A stretch of 64,000 nucleotides of DNA from Methanobacteriota archaeon. GTDB taxonomy: Archaea > Thermoplasmatota > Thermoplasmata > UBA10834. Below are positions 4,067-64,000 of this stretch, piece by piece. The translations under genes and the position numbers were made by a program. The number at the start of each line of letters is the position of its first letter. The stretch's first letter is position 1. The notes under the pieces were generated by a model that saw only the letters and a list, made by a program, of their open reading frames with translations, was not told the DNA's origin and ran no database searches. The stretch is taken from positions 861,216 to 925,215 of the forward strand of contig CP070732.1 in assembly GCA_020347565.1 (NCBI GenBank), read 5' to 3'.

Positions 4067-4946
4067 GCAGCTCCTCGAGCCCCTCCCTGAGAGATATCCT
4101 AGGCACGAATCCGAAGGTGTCGTAGGTCTTCTTCATGTCAGCGACGCTGTGCCGTATGTCGCCAGTCCTCGGAGCTACATGCTCAGGCTCCAGGTCTAGC
4201 CCGCGTATCGATATCACGAGCCTCGCCAGGTCGAGCACGCTCGTGCGGTCGCCAGTGCCGCAGTTGAACACCTGACCGGAGTGTCCCTCCGCCTCCGCTA
4301 CCGTCCCCACGAACGCGGCTACGTCCTTCGCATGAATGAAATCTCTCGTCTGCAGGCCGTCGCCCTCGATTAGTGGTGGCTTGCCCTCCGCCACACGCCT
4401 GGTGAACTTGGTGATGACGCCCGAGTACGGGCTGTCTGGGTCCGCTCGCTCCGAGTAGAAGTTGAACGGCCGTATCGCCACGACCTCCATCTCGTGCGAG
4501 CTGGCGTACGCGACAGCGAAGCGCTCTCCCGCGAGCTTGCTCGCGCCGTAGTTGCTGGTGGGCTCCGTCGGATGTTCCTCGTCTATCGGCACGCGTCTCG
4601 GGTCGCCCAGAACCGCAGCGCTTGACAGATAGACGAACCTGCGCACGCCTGCCTCGGCGGCTTCGTGGAGCATGTTGATCGTGCCGATCACGTTCGTCTC
4701 GGCGTCGGTCACCGGGTCCACCATCGACCGTTCCACGCTCACCTGGGCGGCGCAGTGGACTACCACCTCGACGCCGGCAACGGCCTCCCTCACATCGGCC
4801 CGGCGTCTCACGTCGCCGATTATCGATTCGAGCCCCTCGACGCGACCGAGGAGCAGGTCAAAGCCGAGCACATCGTGCCCGTCGTACATGTGCTCGCAAA
4901 CGTACGATCCCAGCTGGCCGGAACTGCCCGTCACGAGCACCCTCAT
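4059..4946 (-). CDS. NAD-dependent nucleotide-sugar epimerase/dehydratase (SDR family)
   Basis: The protein begins MRVLVTGSSGQLGSYV, a glycine-rich NAD-binding motif. It carries the catalytic YGASK (YxxxK) motif. Its 3' end overlaps the convergent dehydrogenase gene by 8 nt. Confidence 0.8.
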   Translation of the reverse strand: MRVLVTGSSGQLGSYVCEHMYDGHDVLGFDLLLGRVEGLESIIGDVRRRADVREAVAGVEVVVHCAAQVSVERSMVDPVTDAETNVIGTINMLHEAAEAGVRRFVYLSSAAVLGDPRRVPIDEEHPTEPTSNYGASKLAGERFAVAYASSHEMEVVAIRPFNFYSERADPDSPYSGVITKFTRRVAEGKPPLIEGDGLQTRDFIHAKDVAAFVGTVAEAEGHSGQVFNCGTGDRTSVLDLARLVISIRGLDLEPEHVAPRTGDIRHSVADMKKTYDTFGFVPRISLREGLEELLS

Positions 4947-4992
4947 GTCACACCGTCCACGTCCGCTTCACCGCCTTTTCGCGCCGATCACG

Positions 4993-5970
4993 TCACCTGA
5001 CCGCCTGCTTGCCCCCGGTCCTCATGGACCGCAGCGCCGCGTAGGCGACCTTCAGCGTGGTCAGGGCGCTCTCGCCGGTCACGAGCGGGTCCACGCCATT
5101 GTCGATCGCACCGAGGAAGTCACCTATCTCTCGCTTCAGTGGCTCCTCCTTGCGAAGGGCTATGCGTCTGAGGTCGAACTCGATTGGCACCTCGTACAGG
5201 TTGCCGGTCTCGAGCTGCTTGAAGGACGACGAGCACACGAGGGCGCTCTGGTCCATGTAGTCGACTTCGACGTAGTTCTTGCTGCAAGTCAGCGAGAGCT
5301 TCCGAACCTTCATCGGAGTCAGCCAGTTCACCTCGATGAAGCCGGTTTCGCCTCCTTCGAAATCGATGAGTATGTTCGCGTGGTCTTCGTACTTCGTGCC
5401 CGCGCTCTTCCCCCCGAGGGCGTACACCGATCGCGGCGGCTTCGCGACGATGTGCTGCAGCACATCGATGTCGTGGATACCAAGATCCATGACAACCCCG
5501 ACGTCACGTATCCTCGTGGGCATGGATGACACGCGCCTGGTCGCGGCGGTGATCAGCTCGCCATAGGCCTTCGACTTGATGCTCCTCCGGGCGAAGTCGA
5601 CCGCGGGGTTGTGCCTCTCGGTGAACCCGCCGGCGAGGACGACCTTCTGTCGCCTGGCAAGCGACTCGAGCGCGGCGAGCTTCTTCGGGTCGCCTGTCAT
5701 AGGCTTCTCGAGCAGCACATGCTTTCCCAGCTTGAGCGCCTCCGTGGCGATCCGGCTGTGCGTCGTCGTCGGCGTCACGACCGTCACGGCGTCGAAGTCG
5801 CGCCTCAGGAGCTCCCTGTAGCTTAGGAAGTGCTTGACGGAAAACCGCTTTCCGATAGCCTTCGCCACGCCCGGCGCGGTATCCGCGACACCGCCGAGGA
5901 GGCCCATCTCGGACAGTATCCTGGCATGGTTGCGTCCCATGGACCCCACACCGATGACGCCTACGTTCAT
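4993..5970 (-). CDS. Gfo/Idh/MocA-family NAD(P)-dependent oxidoreductase (WbpB-like)
   Basis: The protein begins MNVGVIGVGSMGRNHARIL and contains the EKP motif (HVLLEKPM). The start was set to the internal ATG at 5970. The upstream 50 codons of the ORF have no homology-like content. Confidence 0.75.
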   Translation of the reverse strand: MNVGVIGVGSMGRNHARILSEMGLLGGVADTAPGVAKAIGKRFSVKHFLSYRELLRRDFDAVTVVTPTTTHSRIATEALKLGKHVLLEKPMTGDPKKLAALESLARRQKVVLAGGFTERHNPAVDFARRSIKSKAYGELITAATRRVSSMPTRIRDVGVVMDLGIHDIDVLQHIVAKPPRSVYALGGKSAGTKYEDHANILIDFEGGETGFIEVNWLTPMKVRKLSLTCSKNYVEVDYMDQSALVCSSSFKQLETGNLYEVPIEFDLRRIALRKEEPLKREIGDFLGAIDNGVDPLVTGESALTTLKVAYAALRSMRTGGKQAVR

Positions 5971-6076
5971 GTCCGAGCAATCGCCATGGACGATAATAAC
6001 TCTTGGGTATGGGGGACGGTAGAGCGGCGTGAAAGGATAAAATACGCAGCGCGGGATATCATGGCGGGTCTTAGGC

Positions 6077-8581: not shown

Positions 8582-9281
8582 CTACTCCGACGGCACCGCC
8601 TCGCTCGAGGACATCGTCACCGAGGCGCTCAGATGGCGGCTCGAGGCGATAGGTATCGTCGACCACGTGAGAGGCGACGCCGACTGGCTCGCCGACAGGC
8701 AGCGCCAGATCGACGAGCTCAGGGGGGAGCACGGGGACGAATTGGAGATATTCTCGGGCATAGAGGTGAAGGTGAGAGACGAGGAGGGGGCGCTGAACGT
8801 GCTCCCGCAGGCGACTGAGAAGGTGGATTTCGTGATTGCATCGTTCCACGGGGTCCCGAGGAGCGTCGAGGAGCGCATGGAAGGAGGAGACAGGGACGCG
8901 CTCGTCGACTGGTGGCACAGCTGCACACGCATTCTCTTGGACTGCGGGCACGACGCCCACATATTGGGGCACCCGGACAGGATACTGGTCGACCGAGCGC
9001 TCTCCGTCGGGTCGGCGCGGATGAAACGCCTTGTGGAGCAGGCGCTGGCGTCGCGCATGTTCCTCGAATGGAACCCTGCAGCGGCCTATCCCGTACAGCC
9101 TTTCGCGACCGCGCTGGCAGAGCGCGGCGCCCCAAACGTCACCTATGGCAGCGACGCACACTCGACATCGGAACTGACGGACGCGCTCCGCGCGAGGACC
9201 GACTACGAGGCGGGAATAGTCGAGCGCGGGAACCAGGCCTTCCTGTCCATCCTGAGGGAAGATCGCGGCGACCTGTCCTGA
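8559..9281 (+). CDS. PHP-domain (polymerase/histidinol-phosphatase) metal-dependent phosphoesterase
   Basis: The protein begins MDFHIHSDYSDG, the PHP motif 1, and contains further His/Asp motifs (IVDHVRG, SFHGVP, GHPDR). It overlaps the ATP-grasp 3' end by ~23 nt. Alternative starts are at 8538 and 8550. Confidence 0.7.
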   Translation: MDFHIHSDYSDGTASLEDIVTEALRWRLEAIGIVDHVRGDADWLADRQRQIDELRGEHGDELEIFSGIEVKVRDEEGALNVLPQATEKVDFVIASFHGVPRSVEERMEGGDRDALVDWWHSCTRILLDCGHDAHILGHPDRILVDRALSVGSARMKRLVEQALASRMFLEWNPAAAYPVQPFATALAERGAPNVTYGSDAHSTSELTDALRARTDYEAGIVERGNQAFLSILREDRGDLS

Positions 9282-37524: not shown

Positions 37525-37639
37525 AGCGGCCACTTTCGCCTGCCTGCAGCGAATCGCTTTATATCATCGGAGCTTGTGTATTCACCTGGCAGCAGAGTGT
37601 AACAAACGGCTGCCTGAACACACGCAGAGGGGGTTTCTG

Positions 37640-38959
37640 ATGGGAGAGAACAAACTAGCGCCCCATGTGGAGGACGTCGCCAGGGCGCTCGGGAGCAAGT
37701 TGTCTGAAGAGGAGATAGAGAGCGAGCTGAAGGAGTACATAGAGGTCTACAAGCTCACCATTCCCATGGCCAAGAAGACCATGGTGAAGAAGCACGGCGG
37801 CGATGCCAGCGCCTTCACGACCGGCTTCCAGAGGAAGCTGGCCGAGCTGAGACCGAACGAGCCGAACGTGGATTTCGTGGCGAGGGTGGTGACCGCGAAT
37901 GACAAGACGATCGAGGCCAAGGGCGAGAAGAGGCGGATAATGTACGGCCTGCTGGGAGACGACACGACCACGCTCCCCTACACCGTGTGGGAGCCCGAGG
38001 GGATGCAGCTGGAGAAGGGGGACGTCGTGTCTGTCAAGGGCGCGTACACCAGGGAGTACCGCGGAAGGGTCGAGGTGCACTTCGGAAACCGGGTCACTGT
38101 CCGCAGGGAGGACCCGGCGACCATAGACGCGTCGGATGTGGCGCAGGGGCCGCCCAAGGTCGTGACAATCAACCAGATACGGGACAGCATGGGCTACATC
38201 GAGGTGAAGGCGCGCGTGCTTTCCGTCGAGCCCAAGGACGTCACCGTGCAGGGCGAGGAGAAGACGATATACACCGGCACCATGGCCGACCAGACGGGAC
38301 GGATACAGTTCACTGCATGGTCAGACTTCCATCTGAAGCCAGGCGAGCTCGTCAAGATATCGAAGGCAACGGCCAAAAGCTGGAGGAGTATACCCCAGGT
38401 GAACTTCGATGACCGGGCGGAGCTGCTGCGCGTGAAGGAGAAGTTCCCGACGGCAGAGGAGCTCAGCAGGACGAGCATCGTGCCCATCTCGGACGTCGCT
38501 CAAAGAGGCGGCGCGGCGGACGTGTCGGTGAGAGGGACCATAGTCGAGGTCAGGGATGGCTCCGGCCTGATCATGCGCTGTCAGGAGTGCAAGCGGGCGT
38601 TGCAGAAGGGCACGTGCAAGGTTCACGGCCGCGTCGAGGGCTACCCCGACCTGAGGATAAAGGCTGTAATCGACGACGGGACTGGATCGGTCAGCACAGT
38701 GTTCGGCAGGGAGATAACTGAGAAGCTCATGGGCTTCACGCTCGACGAGTGCATGGACAAGGCACGGCAGGCGATGAACTTCGACGCCGTCAAGGATTCC
38801 CTAGACGAGGCGCTGCTGTTCAGAATAGTCGACATTGGAGGCAACGTAACGGCCGACGCGTACGGGCTTTCGATGATAGCCAAGGAGGCAGAGCTGGTGA
38901 CCCCAGACTCGAAGGAGGATATAGAGACCCTCCTCGTCGACCTGGAGGAAACGAAATGA
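37640..38959 (+). CDS. rpa: Replication factor A (RPA, ssDNA-binding) with tandem OB folds and C4 zinc ribbon
   Basis: OB-fold repeats (…VDFVARVV…; …GYIEVKARVL…; …VSVRGTIVEV…) and a zinc ribbon CQECKRALQKGTCKVHGRV are present. A GAGGGGGT Shine-Dalgarno lies before the ATG at 37640. Confidence 0.8.
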   Translation: MGENKLAPHVEDVARALGSKLSEEEIESELKEYIEVYKLTIPMAKKTMVKKHGGDASAFTTGFQRKLAELRPNEPNVDFVARVVTANDKTIEAKGEKRRIMYGLLGDDTTTLPYTVWEPEGMQLEKGDVVSVKGAYTREYRGRVEVHFGNRVTVRREDPATIDASDVAQGPPKVVTINQIRDSMGYIEVKARVLSVEPKDVTVQGEEKTIYTGTMADQTGRIQFTAWSDFHLKPGELVKISKATAKSWRSIPQVNFDDRAELLRVKEKFPTAEELSRTSIVPISDVAQRGGAADVSVRGTIVEVRDGSGLIMRCQECKRALQKGTCKVHGRVEGYPDLRIKAVIDDGTGSVSTVFGREITEKLMGFTLDECMDKARQAMNFDAVKDSLDEALLFRIVDIGGNVTADAYGLSMIAKEAELVTPDSKEDIETLLVDLEETK

Positions 38960-39873
38960 ACGCCCGCGAGGTCTCGTGGCGAGTCTTCGCGGACGAGTAC
39001 AGCTCATCGACCATGGAGTATCGGGGCGAGGGCGAGAAGCCCGTGTCGTACATCGTCACGCCGCTCGGCGCCAGGGTCAACCGCATGCTCGCCGTCGGCG
39101 TGATCACGGAGATCGAAGATGTCGGCGAGGGGGACAAGCCAAGGTACCGCGCACGCCTGGCCGACCTGACCGGGACGTTCTACATCTCCGCAGGGGAGTA
39201 CCAGCCGGAGGCCGCGACGGCGCTCTCGAAGATGTCGCCTCCGGCGTTCGCCGCGGTCGTTGGCAAGAGCCGTGCTTACTCGCCCGAGGAGGGCGTCAAG
39301 TACCTGAGCATCCGCCCGGAGCGGATAAGGGAGGTGGATGCCGCCACCAGAGACTACTGGGTGCTGGAGACTGCGAGGAGCACGCTCACGAGGATAGACG
39401 CGACGGGCGAGGCTGCTAGGATGAGCCAGCCGACGGCAGGCGAGATGATGCGCCTGGGATTCCCGGAGGGGCTGGCGGATGGTGTGGTGCTCGCGGCGGA
39501 GTACTACGGAGATGTCGACCTGGACAGGTTCAGAGGGGTCATCAGGGACGCCCTCAGGGCCGTCCTGCCGGACGGCGCGAGCGCGCCGAAGGCCCCGGAG
39601 GCCGAAAGGACGAAGGCGCCTGAAGAGGCCAGGCGCGAGGGCGCGGCCCGGGAGGAGATGCAGGAGCTCGAGGTCGGCGCGGACGAGGAGGAGACGGTAC
39701 TCGGCATCATCGACGCCCTGGCCGACGGGCCGAAGGGCGCCCAGTGGGAGAGGATAGTGGAAGCCGCCAAGGAGAAGAAGATCGACAAGGTAAGGCTCGA
39801 GGAGGTCGTCTCCGCGCTGCTGGACAAGGGGGACATATACGAGCCCGAACTCGGAATGATGAAGCGCATTTAG
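38956..39873 (+). CDS. RPA-associated protein (COG3390-like OB-fold protein) with acidic/basic C-terminal region
   Basis: The start overlaps the RPA stop (ATGA). An N-terminal OB-like domain is followed by a low-complexity E/A/R-rich segment. The assignment rests on memory of the RPA-RPAP gene pair in Euryarchaeota. Confidence 0.55.
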   Translation: MNAREVSWRVFADEYSSSTMEYRGEGEKPVSYIVTPLGARVNRMLAVGVITEIEDVGEGDKPRYRARLADLTGTFYISAGEYQPEAATALSKMSPPAFAAVVGKSRAYSPEEGVKYLSIRPERIREVDAATRDYWVLETARSTLTRIDATGEAARMSQPTAGEMMRLGFPEGLADGVVLAAEYYGDVDLDRFRGVIRDALRAVLPDGASAPKAPEAERTKAPEEARREGAAREEMQELEVGADEEETVLGIIDALADGPKGAQWERIVEAAKEKKIDKVRLEEVVSALLDKGDIYEPELGMMKRI

Positions 39874-39919: not shown

Positions 39920-40369
39920 TCAATTGCCGAACTCGTCCTTCGATACCGCGACCAGTATGAGACCGATCAGCCCAAGTATCGACGGGATTGTCAGTATGCC
40001 CGCCAGCAACGCCAAGACGAAGTTCTTCTTCTGGGTCGCAAATATGCCGCCGAGCAACGCCAGTATTCCGAGGACGAGCACAACAGCTCCGCAGACTACC
40101 GCAGCCGCGCCTTCACCCACGTCGGCCCAGGACCAAAGGGCGCCACCGGCGACCATCAATCCTCCACCTATGAAGTACATGATGCTCGCGATGATTATCA
40201 GGATACCTCCCACGAGCGGCATAGCGCTGTCCTTCTTCTGGGTCTGCCCGGGTGCTGCCATCACCGCCCTGAAATCGTGTCCGCAGTAGGGACATACGTT
40301 CGCATCCCAGGAGATCGAACGTCCGCAGGACACGCAGTTCCTGGGTTGCTGGGATTGTGCTTCAGACAT
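39920..40369 (-). CDS. Zinc-ribbon + polytopic membrane protein (paralog 1)
   Basis: The protein begins MSEAQSQQPRNCVSCGRSISWDANVCPYCGHDFR, followed by ~4 TM helices, and ends ...LILVAVSKDEFGN. A GGAAAGGTGA Shine-Dalgarno lies upstream. Confidence 0.55.
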   Translation of the reverse strand: MSEAQSQQPRNCVSCGRSISWDANVCPYCGHDFRAVMAAPGQTQKKDSAMPLVGGILIIIASIMYFIGGGLMVAGGALWSWADVGEGAAAVVCGAVVLVLGILALLGGIFATQKKNFVLALLAGILTIPSILGLIGLILVAVSKDEFGN

Positions 40370-40468
40370 GGTTCACCTTTCCCTGTAGTGAGCGGTGTAT
40401 GCCAGGACACTGCTCATGCTACCCGAAGATACCTGGACATTATAAAACGGTTGGCATGTCCCACTGGT

Positions 40469-41002
40469 TCAGTAGTGGTATTCAGACTTCTCGAGGCGCT
40501 CCGCGGCCTGCTCGAACTCGTCCTTGGACAAGGCTACCAGTATAACCCCGATCAGCCCGAGGAGGCTTCCCACAAGGAACCCGAGGCCAACGAGTCCGAA
40601 TATGCCGCCCACCAAGGCGAGATAGAAATGTCTGCGCATGAGGGCGAACACGCCTCCGAGCACAGCTATGGTTCCGAAGACGAACTCCAGACCGCCGCAC
40701 ACGTTCAGTATTTCCTCAAGGTCTTCCAGAGAAATCTCACTCTGCGACACGGGCGTGTACCCAGCCTCTTCGAAGTCATCTGCGTCCATGCTGAGGTATA
40801 GTGCGCCCATGGCTATTGCCAGGAGGCCCGCGATGATTATCAGTGCGCCAGCAACGATAGGCTTCGCGCTCTTCACCACGACCGGCACGGGCTGCATCGC
40901 GCTTCTGTAGTCATGGCCGCAGTACGGACAGACGTTCGCATGCCAGTCGATCTTCCGTCCACAGGAAACACAGGTTCTCGGAGGCTGGCTCGGCTGAGGC
41001 AT
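40469..41002 (-). CDS. Zinc-ribbon + polytopic membrane protein (paralog 2)
   Basis: The protein begins MPQPSQPPRTCVSCGRKIDWHANVCPYCGHDYR, followed by TM helices and an acidic insert, and ends ...VILVALSKDEFEQ.... It is clearly paralogous to the downstream gene. An alternative start lies at 41047. Confidence 0.55.
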   Translation of the reverse strand: MPQPSQPPRTCVSCGRKIDWHANVCPYCGHDYRSAMQPVPVVVKSAKPIVAGALIIIAGLLAIAMGALYLSMDADDFEEAGYTPVSQSEISLEDLEEILNVCGGLEFVFGTIAVLGGVFALMRRHFYLALVGGIFGLVGLGFLVGSLLGLIGVILVALSKDEFEQAAERLEKSEYHY

Positions 41003-41109
41003 AGCCGACACGATACCTTCGCCGGATTCGTATGTCCCTCGCTCCATTCACGTCACCCACGCAGCTGGAACAGCATCCAGGCGTGTATTGCGATTGGCTA
41101 CGGAGTATA

Positions 41110-41676
41110 TCATGATTTCCGATTGTCGCCGACAGAATCGGTTTCCGACTGCTCTCGCTTCCTGTCAGCCTCATCCTTCAGCGCGACCAGGAATAGCGCA
41201 AGAAGCAGAGCCAGGGAGATGCCTGCGATGACGCCAGTGGTGATCCTCAGTGGGTTCGTCGATTCGTAATCGGTCACGGCCTGGAGCCCCCCATCGATTC
41301 CTATCGGTACCAGACCCAGTAGGAGCAAGAGGGGGTTCACGGACGTCGTGACGAACACGGCTACCCCCGATGCGACCGCGAGGCCGATGAAGAGCCCCAG
41401 GTCACGCGAGCAGAAAGGCATCTGGTTGCCGTTGAGGAAGTAGCTTCTCTCGGAGATCTGATGACATTGGCTGTCGCCGATCGTGTACACGGCTCTGGGC
41501 AGCAGGTCGAGGTCGGAGAACGCCTCCGCGTTGTCTCTCATCCCCACCACGCCCGAGAGGTCCGTCAGCGTACCCTCGGGGACAAGGTAAGGTGAAAGAA
41601 CGACGAGCACGAGCCACACAGACGTGACGACGAACATCATGAGCACTGCGAGAGATGTTATCCTCGGAAGGCGCAT
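41110..41676 (-). CDS. DUF2085-like membrane protein
   Basis: The protein has four TM helices and the conserved motif ...YTIGDSQCHQISERSYFLNGNQMPFCSRDLGLFIG.... The family assignment comes from memory of the DUF2085 motif. Confidence 0.5.
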   Translation of the reverse strand: MRLPRITSLAVLMMFVVTSVWLVLVVLSPYLVPEGTLTDLSGVVGMRDNAEAFSDLDLLPRAVYTIGDSQCHQISERSYFLNGNQMPFCSRDLGLFIGLAVASGVAVFVTTSVNPLLLLLGLVPIGIDGGLQAVTDYESTNPLRITTGVIAGISLALLLALFLVALKDEADRKREQSETDSVGDNRKS

Positions 41677-41705
41677 CGAGACCTTGATGATGAGCGGCCC
41701 TAATG

Positions 41706-42521
41706 TTACTTTTCAATCACAACGGCCGCGTACCCCACAACGTCGCGCATCGGCCTGACACCGCCCGATGTAGCCCACTTCAGGACGCGCGCCTTACCGC
41801 CTTCGCAAGCGGTCATCATGGCCATGACCGGCCCGTATCCACACATGGATATGCTCTCTTCCATGACGACGTCGTACAATCCCTTGACGTCCATGCGCTC
41901 GATTGCCTCCAGAGCCATGCCGTCCTTCTCGCGCGCCGTCTCGCTGGTGACGTAGTGCGAGAAGTCCGTGGACGCCACGACGATCGCGTCCTTGCCGCGC
42001 ACGGCGTCCCTGACCGTCTCGCCCAAGGATCTGGCGGCGTCGTAGTCCTGGAAGGCCATGCATATGGGGACGAACTTGAACTCCTCAGAGATGTACTGTA
42101 TGAACGGAAGCTGGACCTCGATGGAGTGCTCGTAATGGTGCGCCTTAGGGTCCACGTCCACGAGATCCTTTCTCATGGCTGCGGCAAGCTCCTGGTCCAC
42201 CTTTGCGACCCCCAGGGGCGTCTCGAAGTCCTCCATCGCCAGGGCGACGCCTGAGCCGCTCCCCGTGTGATTGGGACCGATGATGACGAAGGTACCGGGC
42301 ACGCCATCGGAGGCGATCGCGTCATACAGGTGTGCTGCGACGGGACCCGAGAACATCAGACCCGCGTGTGGGGAGACGCCCCCCAGTATGTTCCTGGAGC
42401 CGTTACCTTTCGAAGGCAAGTGCTGCGGCCCGATAGGACTCTTGAAGCATTCCTCGACCTCACGCCTGAGGCCCTTCTCGTCACCTGAGTAGAATTGACC
42501 AGCGACAGCGGGACTCCTCAT
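41706..42521 (-). CDS. MEMO1-family protein (AmmeMemoRadiSam system protein B)
   Basis: The protein begins MRSPAVAGQFYSGD. The motifs ...GGVSPHAGLMFSG..., ...VIIGPNH... and ...STDFSHY... are typical of the MEMO1/AmmeMemoRadiSam protein B family. A GGAG Shine-Dalgarno lies upstream. Confidence 0.8.
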   Translation of the reverse strand: MRSPAVAGQFYSGDEKGLRREVEECFKSPIGPQHLPSKGNGSRNILGGVSPHAGLMFSGPVAAHLYDAIASDGVPGTFVIIGPNHTGSGSGVALAMEDFETPLGVAKVDQELAAAMRKDLVDVDPKAHHYEHSIEVQLPFIQYISEEFKFVPICMAFQDYDAARSLGETVRDAVRGKDAIVVASTDFSHYVTSETAREKDGMALEAIERMDVKGLYDVVMEESISMCGYGPVMAMMTACEGGKARVLKWATSGGVRPMRDVVGYAAVVIEK

Positions 42522-42600
42522 GGATATTCAACTCCCTCGAGATACGGAGCTATGGCTCAGCACAAGTAATAGCTTTTTCCAATGTCGGTGTCGCGGCAGA

Positions 42601-43242
42601 CTACAACGACGCCTCGAAATCCTCTACCGGCATCTTGAAGTCATCGTCCGTTTTGATGGCGCCCCTTGCCCTGAGGACCTCGCGCGCGAGTAGCCAGTAG
42701 ATCGTCGCGAGCGCTCGCCGCCCCTTGTTGTTCGAGGGCACCACGAGATCGACGTTTCTGGTCTCGTTGTTGGCATCGCATATGGCCACGATAGGTATGC
42801 CTATGCTGAGGGCCTCCGACAGCGCCTGATCGTCCGCCGCAGGATCGGTCACGAGTACCATCTCCGGCTCCGCGAAGCCAGGCAGGATCGGATTGGTCAG
42901 CGAGCCCGGTACGAACCTGCCAGCGACGATCGAGGTGCCGACCGTCTTGGCGAAGACCTTCGCGGGCTTCTGGCCGTACTGCCTCGCCGACACCACGAGC
43001 ACTCGTTCCGGCTGAAACCGAGCGATGAATCTGGCGGCCACCCTGATGCGCTCATCCGTCTTCTTGACGTCTAATACGTACAGGCCGTCCGACCTGACCT
43101 TGAAAATGAAATCCTTCATGTCGGCGCTCTTCTGCTGAGTGCCGATGTGGACGCCGGACGTCAGGTACACGTCTTCCGGTATGAGAAGCCGCGACTCTGG
43201 CGCTTCCGTCTCACCCGTCTCCGGTATCGCCTGCTCTTCCAT
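42601..43242 (-). CDS. rps2: 30S ribosomal protein S2 (uS2), archaeal type
   Basis: The protein contains ...[13 protein letters not shown]...DGLYVLDV...[13 protein letters not shown]...TDPAAD..., the canonical uS2 motifs. Length is 213 aa. Confidence 0.9.
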
Positions 43243-43251
43243 CTGAAAACC

Positions 43252-43425
43252 TCAATCCTCTCGCTTGACAGTCATCGGTATCGCGCCCGTGTCGAACTCT
43301 ATTATGGATATCTCAATCGGGTCAATCATCTCGTCCGGTATGTCCACGAGCACCGGCGCGCCCATGCTGATCTGCAGCGCCCTGGCGCCGATGATCCTTG
43401 CCCTCTCAAACCGAGTATACCTCAC
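43252..43425 (-). CDS. rpoK: DNA-directed RNA polymerase subunit K (Rpo6/RpoK)
   Basis: The protein reads (GTG)[29 protein letters not shown].... This is the canonical RpoK core (compare MJ: [26 protein letters not shown]). It is 57 aa from the GTG with a GAGAGG upstream. The track ORF is longer (43560), and the start is uncertain. Confidence 0.7.
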
Positions 43426-43724
43426 AGTGGTGACCTCTCTGTGGAGGTATCCCCTAAAATATGGCCCCTTTATATACGTTTGGGGCGTGAGGGCTGTGCT
43501 GGTCGAATAGGCGAAGCTCGTCACGCTCGTCTGCAGGCTCGAGGCGCCGCCCCCCGACAAGAGCCTTTGCCTGCCCGTCCCGAGGCGCCCGTATGCAGCT
43601 TTCGCCTGATACGGTTATCGTATGCACATGTTCGAAATCGCCGTTTTCCGCGCCCGAATGCGCAGGTGAAACCACAACCGATTTATCAAGCGTTCGCTTA
43701 CAGCCAAGCAAGGAGAGCATTGTC

Positions 43725-45197: not shown

Positions 45198-45419
45198 ATG
45201 CCCGAAGAGCACATGATATCGGCGATGTACAGGATTCCCGTGGATAAGGTCAAAGCGGTGCAGAGAGCAGCATCAGGAAAGACACGATGCCCGAAATGCA
45301 GCTCACTCAACCCGGCCAATCGCAGATATTGCAGGGCCTGCAAAGCCAAGCTGTATCCGGTCGAAGAGGAGAACGACAGGATGTACGTGCTCGAGAAGCT
45401 CCAGGGCAAGGAGGATTGA
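45198..45419 (+). CDS. Small C4 zinc-ribbon protein (73 aa)
   Basis: The protein has a CPKC-x10-CRAC ribbon, an AAGGAAATGGTGA Shine-Dalgarno, and a TATA-like 'cattaaatacg' ~40 nt upstream. The CxxC-10-CxxC spacing is like ribosomal L40e, but the N-terminus differs. No assignment was made. Confidence 0.45.
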   Translation: MPEEHMISAMYRIPVDKVKAVQRAASGKTRCPKCSSLNPANRRYCRACKAKLYPVEEENDRMYVLEKLQGKED

Positions 45420-45492: not shown

Positions 45493-48405
45493 TTGCGCGA
45501 AGAAGGATCGCGCAGCATATGTCTAGCTGCGTTGGTCGGAGCTGTCGCACTGATATTGATGATCTCGACTGTTCCAGTGAAGCCGGTGAAGGCCGCGCTG
45601 CCTACGCTACAGGTCATCGACATCTATGCCGAGCAAGACACCTACGTCTCCGATGTGGTCGGATTCACGAACTGGAACTATGGCGGCGATGGGCTTCTGA
45701 AATGCGGATACTACACCACCTTCGAGATGGATTACGGCCACCGTTGCATACTGATTCAATTCGATATGGCCATACTGCCCGCAGACGCGGTGATCAGCTC
45801 GTCGAGTCTGCGCCTTACGCTGGAATCCGGTGGGGGCGAAGACCTCAACGTCCTGCGTGTCGCGTCCGCATGGGATGAGAGGTATGTCACATGGAACACG
45901 AAGCCGGACGTTGTTACCACGGACCCCGAGCTTCCGGTCACCATGTTTGTCGGCACCTCCTCGCTCACTGAGTACTCCGTATCCATCACTCCTTGGGTGG
46001 AGGACTGGCACAGCGAGACGACCGTGAACAACGGCCTCTGGCTTCAGCCGGAGGAGTGGGCTATTCTAGGCGACCCCTGCTACTTCTACAGCTACGACGG
46101 CGCTTGGACCGAGCCGGATGAGAACATGAGCAAGCTCAAGCATCCGAAGTTGCGAATAACCTTCACGTCAGCTACTGTCGTCGAACAGCCGCCTCCGCCC
46201 GACCCGCCACCGTGGCTCGACGACTACACGCCGCCAGAGGTGGAGATATCCATCGAGCCCTCGACTGACATCGCTCCCGACGACTTGGTCACCATAACCG
46301 CGGTGGCGACGGACGATACCTGCCTTGACCAGGCAACCTTGATGGTCGATCTGGCAATCGTCGACCAGGAGCTGATAGACTTCCACGTCCTGGACGCCAC
46401 GGAAGTGACGCTCACCTACTCGACGACCCTCGACTTCGGGGACCATCACATACAGGCATTCGCCAACGATCGGATGGCGCTATCCGGCGGAGACTACATC
46501 CTCAAGCATGTCGGCTCTAGGACACCTCCTTCGGTGATGGTCGCCTGCGAGACCGAACGCGTGATGCCTGAGGATGGTTCGGACATCGTGGCGACGGTCG
46601 TAGCGGAGGACTCCGAGGGAATCAAACGTCTGGTAGTTGGCCTCGAAAGGGCCGTCTGGGACCACGTCTCGTTCCCCGACCACTCGGAGGTGTTCGTCTT
46701 CTCGGAGCCGTATCCGAAATCGTTCTCAACCACTGTCACCTTGCCGAACCTGGACGTCCCGGGCTACGTGACGCCCAAGACGGACGCTACGAAGGTGGAG
46801 TGCCTCGCCTACGCGGATGATGTCGAGGACCTCTACACTATAGCCAGCGACAACGTAACGGTCGTGAGGCCCTATCAATGGGATTATGGGATAGCCTACC
46901 AGAACCCCACGGGCGGGCTCTCCTGGCAGCGATACGAGGACACCTTCGGACACGGGGAGCTCTGGGGCCCGGGAAGCCTGGAGTGGTGGAAGACCGCCGT
47001 GGCGAGATTCTGGTGGCCCATCTACGATGTGATGGCCAACAACGGCGAGTGCTTCGGCATGAGCATGTACAGCCTATGGCATCAAAGGAACGAGATACCC
47101 GTACCCGATAGCCTGACGGAACATGTGGGCGGCGACCTGCCACCGGCGCTTCCAGGATATAACGAGCAGAACTACGCCAGGAGGACCATTGAGAGGTGGC
47201 AGGGCGCGCAGATCTCGCAGGAGATCCTGTCCAAGTACATAGACCAGGTCGGCGACCAGCTGTCCGCGTCGAACGCCATAAGACCGTTCCTGTCCGGGCC
47301 GTTCCAACGCCTCATCGAGGATCTCGACAGGGGTGAGCCCGGTGTTCTCTACATGGCGGAGTACAGGGGTCTCGGTGGCGGTGTGACGGAGTGCGTTGGG
47401 GCTCATGCCGTCGTCCCGTGGCTCGTCGTCGAGACCGAGCCGAACGTGTGGAGGATCTACGTCTACGACTCAAACAGGCCTTACGCCAGCACGACCAACT
47501 CGACGGAGTACGACAACTTCGACCACTATCCATTCGTAGAGGTCAGCGAGGACGGCTACACGTGGAACATGGGCGACGAGACCTGGAACGACTACATCTG
47601 GTACGTGTCATACGAGAGCGTCCTGAGGAACGACTACGATTTGATGGACGGATGGCTCGTCGCGGCGACCGTCCTTCTCATGATCGTTGTGGTTGGCACG
47701 GTGCTGGCGATCGCGGGCGGCGTTCTAGTCACCATAAAGGCTCTTCTGCCGATCCCGTTGCCTCTCCCCATGGGAGCGCCCACGGCGCAGGGTATCGCGT
47801 TGCCCCTGGGACAGCCGTACGAGGTCGAGATCCGCGGGCAGGTGGACGCGGAGTACACCTGGGCAATGGCGGCAGATCACTCGACTTACTCCATCGCCAA
47901 CAAGAGCTGCAGCGACGGCAGCGTGGACGGGCTGACGCTCGACATCGATGACGATTGGAAGGGCTATTCGATGAGGCTCAAGCCTGGGCTGGTCGACGAC
48001 GACTTCGCCGTGGGCATGTCCCACGGGATAGGCGCGGAGGAGAGGGAGTACCTGATGGAGAACATATCGCTCCGAGAAGACGGGGACATGCAGACCTACG
48101 CGACACATGACGGTGATAGCCTCGTGATAGCCAACCACGGCACCGACGCCATCCCCGTGAAGGTGATGTTCAGGAGCAACAGGTCGAACGGAGAGGCGAC
48201 GGACGATATCGTCGTTCCCGCTGGTAAGCAGGTCGTCATCACGGTGGACTGGAGCGACCTGGCCAACTCGAGTGTCGAAGTGGATACGGAGGGCATAGGC
48301 GGGGAGCGGACGCCTCTGTTCATAATCGTCCTCGTGGTCGGCCTCGTCATCATAGCGGCGGCGGTGATATCCTACGTCGCATACAGGAGGAACAAGGCGG
48401 AGTGA
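45493..48405 (+). CDS. Large secreted surface protein with N-terminal DNRLRE-like domain, internal hydrophobic segment and C-terminal TM anchor
   Basis: A TTG start gives the signal peptide (L)REEGSRSICLAALVGAVALILMISTVPVKPVKA. The N-terminal domain contains ...SSLRLTLESGGGEDLNVLRVASAWDERYVTWNTKP..., resembling the secreted DNRLRE-domain pattern. The C-terminus FIIVLVVGLVIIAAAVISYVAYRRNKAE is a TM anchor. Confidence 0.55.
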   Translation: MREEGSRSICLAALVGAVALILMISTVPVKPVKAALPTLQVIDIYAEQDTYVSDVVGFTNWNYGGDGLLKCGYYTTFEMDYGHRCILIQFDMAILPADAVISSSSLRLTLESGGGEDLNVLRVASAWDERYVTWNTKPDVVTTDPELPVTMFVGTSSLTEYSVSITPWVEDWHSETTVNNGLWLQPEEWAILGDPCYFYSYDGAWTEPDENMSKLKHPKLRITFTSATVVEQPPPPDPPPWLDDYTPPEVEISIEPSTDIAPDDLVTITAVATDDTCLDQATLMVDLAIVDQELIDFHVLDATEVTLTYSTTLDFGDHHIQAFANDRMALSGGDYILKHVGSRTPPSVMVACETERVMPEDGSDIVATVVAEDSEGIKRLVVGLERAVWDHVSFPDHSEVFVFSEPYPKSFSTTVTLPNLDVPGYVTPKTDATKVECLAYADDVEDLYTIASDNVTVVRPYQWDYGIAYQNPTGGLSWQRYEDTFGHGELWGPGSLEWWKTAVARFWWPIYDVMANNGECFGMSMYSLWHQRNEIPVPDSLTEHVGGDLPPALPGYNEQNYARRTIERWQGAQISQEILSKYIDQVGDQLSASNAIRPFLSGPFQRLIEDLDRGEPGVLYMAEYRGLGGGVTECVGAHAVVPWLVVETEPNVWRIYVYDSNRPYASTTNSTEYDNFDHYPFVEVSEDGYTWNMGDETWNDYIWYVSYESVLRNDYDLMDGWLVAATVLLMIVVVGTVLAIAGGVLVTIKALLPIPLPLPMGAPTAQGIALPLGQPYEVEIRGQVDAEYTWAMAADHSTYSIANKSCSDGSVDGLTLDIDDDWKGYSMRLKPGLVDDDFAVGMSHGIGAEEREYLMENISLREDGDMQTYATHDGDSLVIANHGTDAIPVKVMFRSNRSNGEATDDIVVPAGKQVVITVDWSDLANSSVEVDTEGIGGERTPLFIIVLVVGLVIIAAAVISYVAYRRNKAE

Positions 48406-62813: not shown

Positions 62814-62887
62814 AGCGGGCCCGGTGGGATTTGAACCCACGTCGTCGGCTCCGAAGGCCAAAAGGATGTCCGAACTACCCTACGGGC
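62814..62887 (-). tRNA. tRNA-Arg (anticodon TCG)
   Basis: Reverse complement: GGGCCCG-TA-GGGT-AGTTCGGAC-ATCC-TT-TTGGC-CTTCGGA-GCCGA-CGAC-GTGGG-TTCAAAT-CCCAC-CGGGCCC-G. It has a 7-bp acceptor stem, a canonical T-arm (GTGGG/TTCAAAT/CCCAC), and an anticodon loop CT-TCG-GA with U33. The D-arm register is slightly atypical. No encoded CCA. Confidence 0.75.
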
Positions 62888-63175
62888 CCAGAGACGAGAT
62901 TGCCCTGTCGTATATATCCTTTGCAGGCACGGCGGCCAAATGTGATTACATCCGATTCGAACAAGGGCTCCGTACGGCTCACATGTTCGTTTCAACGCCT
63001 GTGATCACACTCACCTGTCAAGCACAATGCTGATTCTCACCCGGGATAATCTGTCCCTTGTTAGGGACAGAAAATAATATATTGCCATCAAGTGAGTCAG
63101 TATAACACCCCCACCAACGCGGAATTGCAGCACTGTCTCACAGTCGATGACACAGATACAGCATAAGCGGTAGAC

Positions 63176-64000
63176 CATGACACCGAGCGGAATGAAGATA
63201 CTGTCGTGCCCAGCCTGCGGATACAGGGTTTCAGGATTAGAGGGAGCTTGCCCCCGCTGCGGGAAGGTGTTCGACAAGGACTCCAAGTTCGAATGTCCGT
63301 TCTGCGGCACCCTTGTCCCAGCGTCCGCCGACTCATGCCCGTCATGCCAGATAGACTACCTCGACTTCTCGAGCAAGGCGGAGAAGAAGCTACTGGACAA
63401 GGCGATGGACAAGATCCTTGAAGAGCTGGATTCTCTGATGGAGCCTGGCGAGGGGGGGCCCGTCTGTCCCAAGTGCAGCTCGCCATTAGACGCCCCAGGC
63501 GTCCGATGTCCTCACTGTGGATTCACCCCGAAAGCGAAGGACAAGCCCTCCGAGGAGATCCCTCCAGAACCTGAGGAGCCGCCAGCCTCCACGGATGCAC
63601 TGTGCCCCATATGCGGGGCGTGGGTGAAATCGGACGACCCATCCTGTCGGGAATGCGGTGCAGAGTTCGTTGCTGACGAAGGAGAAATGGTGGACGACGG
63701 CGAACTGGTCTACTGCCCCGTCTGCGATGAACCAGTGGGGTTCGACGTGACTCTGTGCCCTCACTGTGGCGCCGAGTTCGAAGAGGAGGAGGTACAGGAG
63801 CCTGAAATCGTCGAAGCTCCGCCTCAAGCTGAAAAGGCTCCGAGCCTGACGGCAGACGAAGAGGAGGTCGTCGAGGAGATGGACCTGGTCCCCCCGCCTC
63901 CCACAGACGTGCCAGTACGTCGGAGGACCCCTCCTGCACGACCAAAACCGGCGGAGAAGAGGCCTGGGAAGGCCCCGGCTGTAGTGATCCCTCGCCCCAA
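63176..64000 (+). CDS. Multi-zinc-ribbon protein (at least 5 tandem CPxCG...CxxC ribbons), 3'-partial at window end
   Basis: This ORF is not in the track because it has no stop in the window. The translation is MTPSGMKILSCPACGYRVSGLEGACPRCG...FECPFCGTLVPASADSCPSCQ...VCPKCSSPLDAPGVRCPHCG...LCPICGAWVKSDDPSCRECG...YCPVCDEPVGFDVTLCPHCG..., followed by an acidic/Pro-rich segment. Confidence 0.5.

Follow-up and report, generated by a model that had tools for sequence, protein, structure and literature searches.

We analyze a 64-kb window of archaeal DNA (64,000 nucleotides, nt; contig CP070732.1) from an uncultured member of the Thermoplasmata. The focus is on four minus-strand genes encoding a MEMO1-family protein (Memo), a DUF2085 membrane protein (DUF2085a) and two paralogous membrane proteins in which a zinc ribbon precedes four transmembrane (TM) helices (ZnR-TM proteins, encoded by ZnR genes). 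We lean toward reading these genes as part of a lineage-specific, well-conserved neighborhood of an uncultured Thermoplasmata clade, in which a membrane module would be co-expressed with Memo, and not as an AmmeMemoRadiSam system that has changed its partners; the sequence comparisons described below lend this view modest confidence. The original prediction for this locus had proposed a membrane-associated system. A conserved, unannotated cluster is indeed present, but it does not appear to be centered on Memo or to form one operon. The main value of our analysis lies in better annotation and a list of targets, and no specific new mechanism is indicated.

Conservation of the block and its probable transcription units

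Scanning a single genome for each species returned 78 loci, all in Thermoplasmata-type metagenome-assembled genomes (MAGs); the loci were annotated by phmmer with the window proteins as queries. The same block is present in ~ 45 species-level loci: AT3; rpoK-rps2-Memo-DUF2085 followed by one to six ZnR genes; and RPA2-RPA1-methyltransferase-ACT. Metagenome contigs carry it as well. The arrangement singled out by the original prediction is thus kept well beyond the window, in ~ 45 species-level Thermoplasmata genomes. The convergent RPA pair is the boundary of the block in every complete locus. Between DUF2085a and the RPA operon, the arrayed ZnR genes share a near-identical, predicted cytoplasmic C4 ribbon attached to differing membrane modules, and ZnR-TM identity among the scanned loci goes down to ~ 31-60%.

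Spacing within the block varies by junction. The median gap is 9 nt between rpoK and rps2 (42 loci), 80 nt between rps2 and Memo, 95 nt between a DUF2085 gene and a ZnR gene and 136 nt between two ZnR genes, while the Memo-DUF2085a gap is near-invariant, with a median of 29 nt across 44 loci. Three loci (L001/L023 and L063) contain 1.5-2.1 kb inserted between rps2 and Memo, and the Memo-DUF2085a pair is intact in all three. This fixed junction counts in favor of a functional link between the two genes.

In the window, Memo (41706-42521; 271 amino acids, aa), DUF2085a (41110-41676; 188 aa), the long ZnR-TM gene (40469-41047; 192 aa) and the short ZnR-TM gene (39920-40369; 149 aa) all lie on the minus strand, and all four open reading frames (ORFs) are found where co-directional, closely spaced genes had been predicted. 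The spacers from Memo to the short ZnR gene measure 29, 62 and 99 nt, so the genes are close and co-directional without overlap. Upstream on the same strand are rps2 (42601-43242; PF00318) and, 9 nt from it, rpoK (43252-43560; PF01192). Downstream, a convergent RPA-like pair on the plus strand (37574-39873) encodes a 461-aa OB-fold protein and a 305-aa partner.

The earlier proposal of a single four-gene operon goes too far. It may hold for the tight Memo-DUF2085a junction and for the long ZnR gene, which has no TATA box ahead of it, but probably not for the short ZnR gene, which has a promoter-like box of its own. The block probably consists of two or three transcription units, to judge from the following features. 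The 79-nt rps2-Memo spacer contains a promoter-like element, GGAAAAAGCTATTAC (42566-42580, minus strand), ~ 50 nt upstream of the Memo ATG and resembling a B recognition element (BRE) with a TATA box. Across relatives, the element takes the form GAAA(R)nCTATTA at the same distance, and its core, AA...TA-TT, is retained in at least 80% of ~ 40 aligned spacers; conservation and position thus mark it as the predicted Memo promoter. The following spacer (41677-41705, minus strand), with tandem in-frame stops and a G-rich Shine-Dalgarno-like site, is 29 nt long and leaves no room for a promoter, and Memo and DUF2085a probably share one transcript. The second in-frame stop lies one codon past the Memo stop (TAA CAT TAG, minus strand, 41700-41708), and this tandem-stop pattern, T.A..TTA.G, is kept across the clade in ~ 30 related loci. 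A comparison of start and spacing in 14 orthologues shows that genes of the long-paralogue clade begin 21-70 nt after DUF2085a and have no TATA box.

The short ZnR gene, on the other hand, has a TTTTATAAT box at -78 (40439-40447, minus strand), then a leader and a Shine-Dalgarno site. The same layout recurs in related loci, where a TTTTATAA-type box occurs somewhere in the upstream 85 nt of 59 of 92 ZnR genes and falls at -66 to -85 (mostly -72 to -78) in ~ 45 of them; these ~ 45 genes show the box, then a leader, then a strong GGAGGTG Shine-Dalgarno site. Their leaders can fold into hairpins at -47 to -18, which share a position and differ in sequence. RNAfold places the hairpin of the short ZnR gene at 40389-40416 (minus strand), with a predicted energy of -10.6 kcal/mol and z = -0.4 (relatives: median -15.5 kcal/mol, median z -1.4). 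Covariation across the leaders was weak (RNAalifold consensus, -0.26 kcal/mol), and we therefore make no claim of an RNA element. An Rfam scan of the window found one tRNA and nothing else.

The encoded proteins

Memo matches PF01875 (E = 6e-72) and scores above the cutoffs of TIGR04336 (286.5 bits, cutoff 26) and NF001987 (299.3 bits, cutoff 295), and its metal-site motifs PHAG, GPNH, DFSH and CGYGP are all intact. By motif search only, the AMMECR1 motif RGC[IV]G is absent from window ORFs of at least 100 aa and from ORFs of at least 120 aa within 8 kb in 82 related loci; the radical-SAM motif CxxxCxxC is likewise absent from window ORFs of at least 100 aa. Given the absence of the AMMECR1 motif from both the window and the 82 loci, the missing neighbor is the norm in the class. 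The suggestion that membrane proteins had locally taken the place of the AMMECR1 and radical-SAM partners therefore has to be dropped. The Memo context had also been called unusual, and here the membrane-protein neighbors are real, but the description was overstated: Memo follows rpoK-rps2 in every locus, including those of Methanomassiliicoccales. Literature searches on DUF2085, AmmeMemoRadiSam, UPF0103, MEMO1 family protein, and archaeal Memo with AMMECR1 and radical SAM found nothing functional.

DUF2085a is, as predicted, a DUF2085 membrane protein with a CHQ...C motif: it matches PF09858 with E = 3e-24 and 85.5 bits (cutoff 25) over profile positions 1-89 of 90. At its N-terminus, an additional TM helix precedes a beta-hairpin loop carrying C71-H72-Q73...C89-x-R91-D92, after which come three more TM helices. 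In this motif, CHQ...PFCSRD, the CHQ and the first Cys of CxRC are present and the last Cys is replaced by Asp. The replacement is invariant in the window and in 39 DUF2085a orthologues, in which the invariant residues include C, H, C, D and other polar ones; the cytoplasmic tail is not conserved. The AlphaFold2 (AF2) model is confident (predicted local distance difference test score, pLDDT, 89.7; predicted template modeling score, pTM, 0.82). By the positive-inside rule, the conserved Cys/His site probably faces outward, together with the other invariant polar residues, away from the cytoplasmic Memo and ribbons. Structure searches returned no solved structural relative for the DUF2085 family; exact database look-ups for DUF2085a and P0001 were empty, and homologues were used instead. 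In a search of PDB chains, the DUF2085a profile weakly matched, at residues 118-182, the C3/TM6 region of human PLPP1 (E = 1.2e-4), raising the candidate of a PAP2 lipid phosphate phosphatase. We rejected this relationship because the catalytic residues (C3 motif S-R-x5-H-x3-D) are not conserved, and fold searches miss PAP2.

A second DUF2085 form, DUF2085b, occurs in relatives and is absent from the window. This canonical protein of ~ 223 aa has the full CxRC motif (CHQ..CARC) and is always preceded by a gene for a 108-115-aa protein that combines a ribbon with two TM helices, the two genes forming a strict cassette in at least 16 loci. It lies at 8790-9122 and 9217-9888 in L001 and recurs in L008, L015, L018, L031, L032, L041, L042, L046, L052-54, L057, L061, L063 and L083.

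The two distal genes of the window had been called paralogues combining a C4 ribbon with approximately four TM helices, and this is confirmed. The long and short proteins are 42% identical (BLASTP, E = 3e-35), and both contain the quoted motifs: a C-x2-C-x13-C-x2-C ribbon (CVSCG-x13-CPYCG), four hydrophobic helices and a ...SKDEF motif. The AF2 model of the short protein has a pLDDT of 87. The charge distribution fits an N-in/C-in topology, which would make the ribbon, the QKK/RR loop and the SKDEF tail cytoplasmic. The ribbon is the best-conserved region of the family, with conserved Arg and aromatic residues. Between the two window proteins it is identical at 20 of 25 residues, and since 11 of these 20 use different codons, the identity points to purifying selection and not gene conversion. 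C4 ribbon models were matched by all 43 aligned ZnR members, albeit weakly in places: the short protein reaches 29.8 bits against UPF0547 (PF10571; cutoff 29), and the long protein stays below cutoff, at 21-23 bits, for the UPF0547/Zn_ribbon_3 (PF13248) models. In a sequence search of PDB chains, the ribbon found only look-alikes at E >= 0.05 (aIF2-gamma and Rpo12).

The long protein differs from the short one by ~ 25 extra residues in loop 1 (9 D/E, 0 K/R) and a C-terminal tail. The extra acidic stretch had been described as an insert. It is present, but because an acidic loop 1 also occurs in homologues from Methanomassiliicoccales and in ribbon-less homologues, the short form seems to have arisen by deletion, and we consider the acidic loop more likely to be the ancestral state. 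All 360 homologues of the short protein come from Thermoplasmata-type MAGs or metagenomes. A neighbor-joining tree separates the long, short, 160-168-aa and orphan forms into multi-genome clades, which makes the long/short duplication old; on this phylogeny, the pair in the window is one of ancient paralogues and not a recent duplication.

The 4-TM domain itself, which ends in GLIGLILVAxSKDEF, is widespread in metagenomes. A profile built from it matched 2566 representatives at E <= 1e-3 in a search of 1.84 billion representatives, among them tandem-repeat and multi-ribbon architectures. Ribbon-less copies of the domain also exist, and it can be repeated within a protein, arrayed in tandem or present as an orphan copy distant from Memo and DUF2085. 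Single proteins can contain two or four internal repeats. In L088, an unrelated archaeal MAG, the domain occurs in a three-gene tandem array (4183-6035) whose proteins have Pro/Gly/Tyr-rich repeat heads where the ribbon would be. We counted only the Pro-rich and repeat architectures as real ribbon-less forms (P0263, P0269, P0373, P0287 and P0289, with Pro/Gly/Tyr-rich heads or internal repeats), as some of the apparent "4-TM-only" homologues are probably truncated gene calls; one of them, P0259, sits in the same type of locus. No Pfam model matched the 4-TM domain at threshold, with only noise from DUF973 (17.5 bits, 1 of 43 members), Tetraspanin (3 of 43), DUF7144, DUF4383 and DUF4896, and no holin or toxin family matched the ZnR-TM proteins above noise. 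The structure models are confident, yet in fold searches they match only generic helical bundles. Membership of an annotated family with a known function would have accounted for the paralogues, but they match none beyond generic ribbon models. With its ribbons, Pro/Gly/Tyr-rich heads and internal repeats, the domain is modular and array-prone, and it merits a family definition.

A proposed membrane module co-expressed with Memo, and rival explanations

In the reading we prefer, the ZnR membrane proteins and the DUF2085 proteins would serve the same membrane or envelope process. The ribbon surface, on which purifying selection acts strongly, probably docks a common cytoplasmic partner; the DUF2085 proteins would be polytopic membrane proteins whose conserved polar Cys/His pocket faces outward; and Memo would be tied to this module by co-expression and not by direct contact between active sites. 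For the ZnR-DUF2085 link, the strict cassette with DUF2085b counts as evidence. The Memo-DUF2085a pair, fixed in ~ 45 species, provides a concrete partner hypothesis for two families without a known function.

Several observations weigh against this reading. Synteny in the clade extends over the entire 10-kb region and takes in AT3, RPA, the methyltransferase and ACT, which are unrelated genes; neighborhood conservation alone is therefore no proof of functional coupling. In Methanomassiliicoccales, Memo occupies the same site and no DUF2085 gene is found there. The search with DUF2085b yielded almost only clade members, and the two bacterial DUF2085 genes whose contexts were obtained have unrelated neighbors. 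The three-gene 4-TM array of L088 has neither Memo nor DUF2085 nearby. Finally, the promoters, the co-transcription and the topology are all predictions from sequence.

Much of this would be expected if Memo simply rides with rpoK-rps2, and a tolerant spot before the RPA operon gathers and duplicates small membrane-protein genes, the adjacency then reflecting slow rearrangement in a young clade. We regard this main rival as unlikely, although it is to be taken seriously: the unrelated flanks are just as conserved in order, the number of ZnR genes varies from 1 to 6, the bacterial DUF2085 contexts are unrelated, and most ZnR genes bear their own promoter-like box. It does not sit well with a Memo-DUF2085a spacer that stays at ~ 29 nt in 44 loci while the pair survives adjacent insertions, nor with the strictness of the two-gene cassette of the short ribbon gene and DUF2085b. 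Moreover, ZnR-TM identities as low as ~ 31-60% imply time enough for shuffling.

A system built around Memo itself could draw on its intact metal-site motifs, on the invariant C, H, C, D and other polar residues of DUF2085a, and on the absence of the AMMECR1 motif from the window and the 82 related loci and of the radical-SAM motif from the window. We nevertheless find it quite improbable. The DUF2085 pocket is predicted to face outward, whereas neither a signal nor an anchor is present in Memo, and the tail that DUF2085a has on the cytoplasmic side is not conserved. Methanomassiliicoccales hold Memo at the same site without DUF2085, and other parts of the 1.97-Mb genome may simply encode AMMECR1 and the radical-SAM enzyme. 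The data do not mark Memo out as the center of a new system. Memo and DUF2085 would play no part if the ZnR-TM proteins acted autonomously, either as small proteins of a pore-forming, stress or holin-like kind or as ribbons tethered to the membrane that bind nucleic acids and perhaps regulate their own structured leaders. Their Gly/Ala-rich TM helices, together with the two- and fourfold internal repeats and tandem arrays, fit oligomeric assemblies; Arg and aromatic residues are conserved in the ribbon, and many members have leader hairpins at a fixed upstream position. However, the hairpin statistics are weak, no holin or toxin family matches above noise, and there is no mobile-element or defense context, which makes this explanation highly improbable in our view.

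A few further features were noted in passing. A few kb past the block, relatives encode CooT, a CooC-like ATPase and CODH/ACS (L001 14292-20447; L083 10102-10570), which hints at Wood-Ljungdahl metabolism in the clade. Elsewhere in the window, the plus strand encodes a zinc-ribbon protein of 73 aa that weakly matches DUF7577 (45198-45419; a similar small gene adjoins the aminotransferase in L001), a likely surface protein of 970 aa that combines an N-terminal anchor and a CBM96 domain with a TM helix at the C-terminus (45493-48405), and a protein with several tandem zinc ribbons that runs to the window end (63174-63998). A tRNA gene lies beside the last of these on the minus strand (62816-62889).

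Relation to known systems

The predicted fold of the ZnR-TM proteins resembles that of tetraspan scaffolds such as claudin/TARP gamma subunits and the tetraspanin CD53, but by fold only: they show no sequence relationship and have neither the large extracellular loop nor the Cys motifs. Equally good scores are reached by soluble four-helix bundles, and the tetraspan match is therefore generic. Their ribbons are like those of small archaeal proteins (UPF0547/Zn_ribbon_3, HVO_2753-type and RpoP/Rpo12) in the size and spacing of the C4 site and in giving weak hidden Markov model (HMM) matches. In the ZnR-TM proteins, however, the ribbon would form the head, on the cytoplasmic side, of a membrane protein with four TM helices, and their score against the HVO_2753-type zinc-finger micro-proteins is 20, versus a family cutoff of 80. 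The name RpoP/Rpo12, given to some homologues by JGI, was rejected: NF001605 scores 17.8 bits against a cutoff of 63, and RpoP/Rpo12 is a soluble protein of ~ 45 aa, whereas the ZnR-TM proteins have 149-192 aa and four TM helices.

Among the AmmeMemoRadiSam families (TIGR04335 for A, TIGR04336 for B and TIGR04337 for the radical-SAM component), the window Memo is a full-length, high-scoring member of B; it differs in its surroundings, adjoining rps2 upstream and membrane-protein genes downstream. DUF2085a shares with DUF2085 (PF09858) a clear HMM match, the CHQ...C motif and polytopic helices, and departs from it in the added N-terminal TM helix, the Asp in CxRC and the fixed place beside Memo. 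The adjacency of rps2 and Memo is common in Euryarchaeota, for example in Methanothermobacter. In keeping with the archaeal rpoK-rps2 gene string, compared here within Thermoplasmata, Memo is present as the follower in every locus. What sets the clade apart from that string is that its Memo has a promoter-like box of its own and is followed by DUF2085a and the zinc-ribbon membrane genes.

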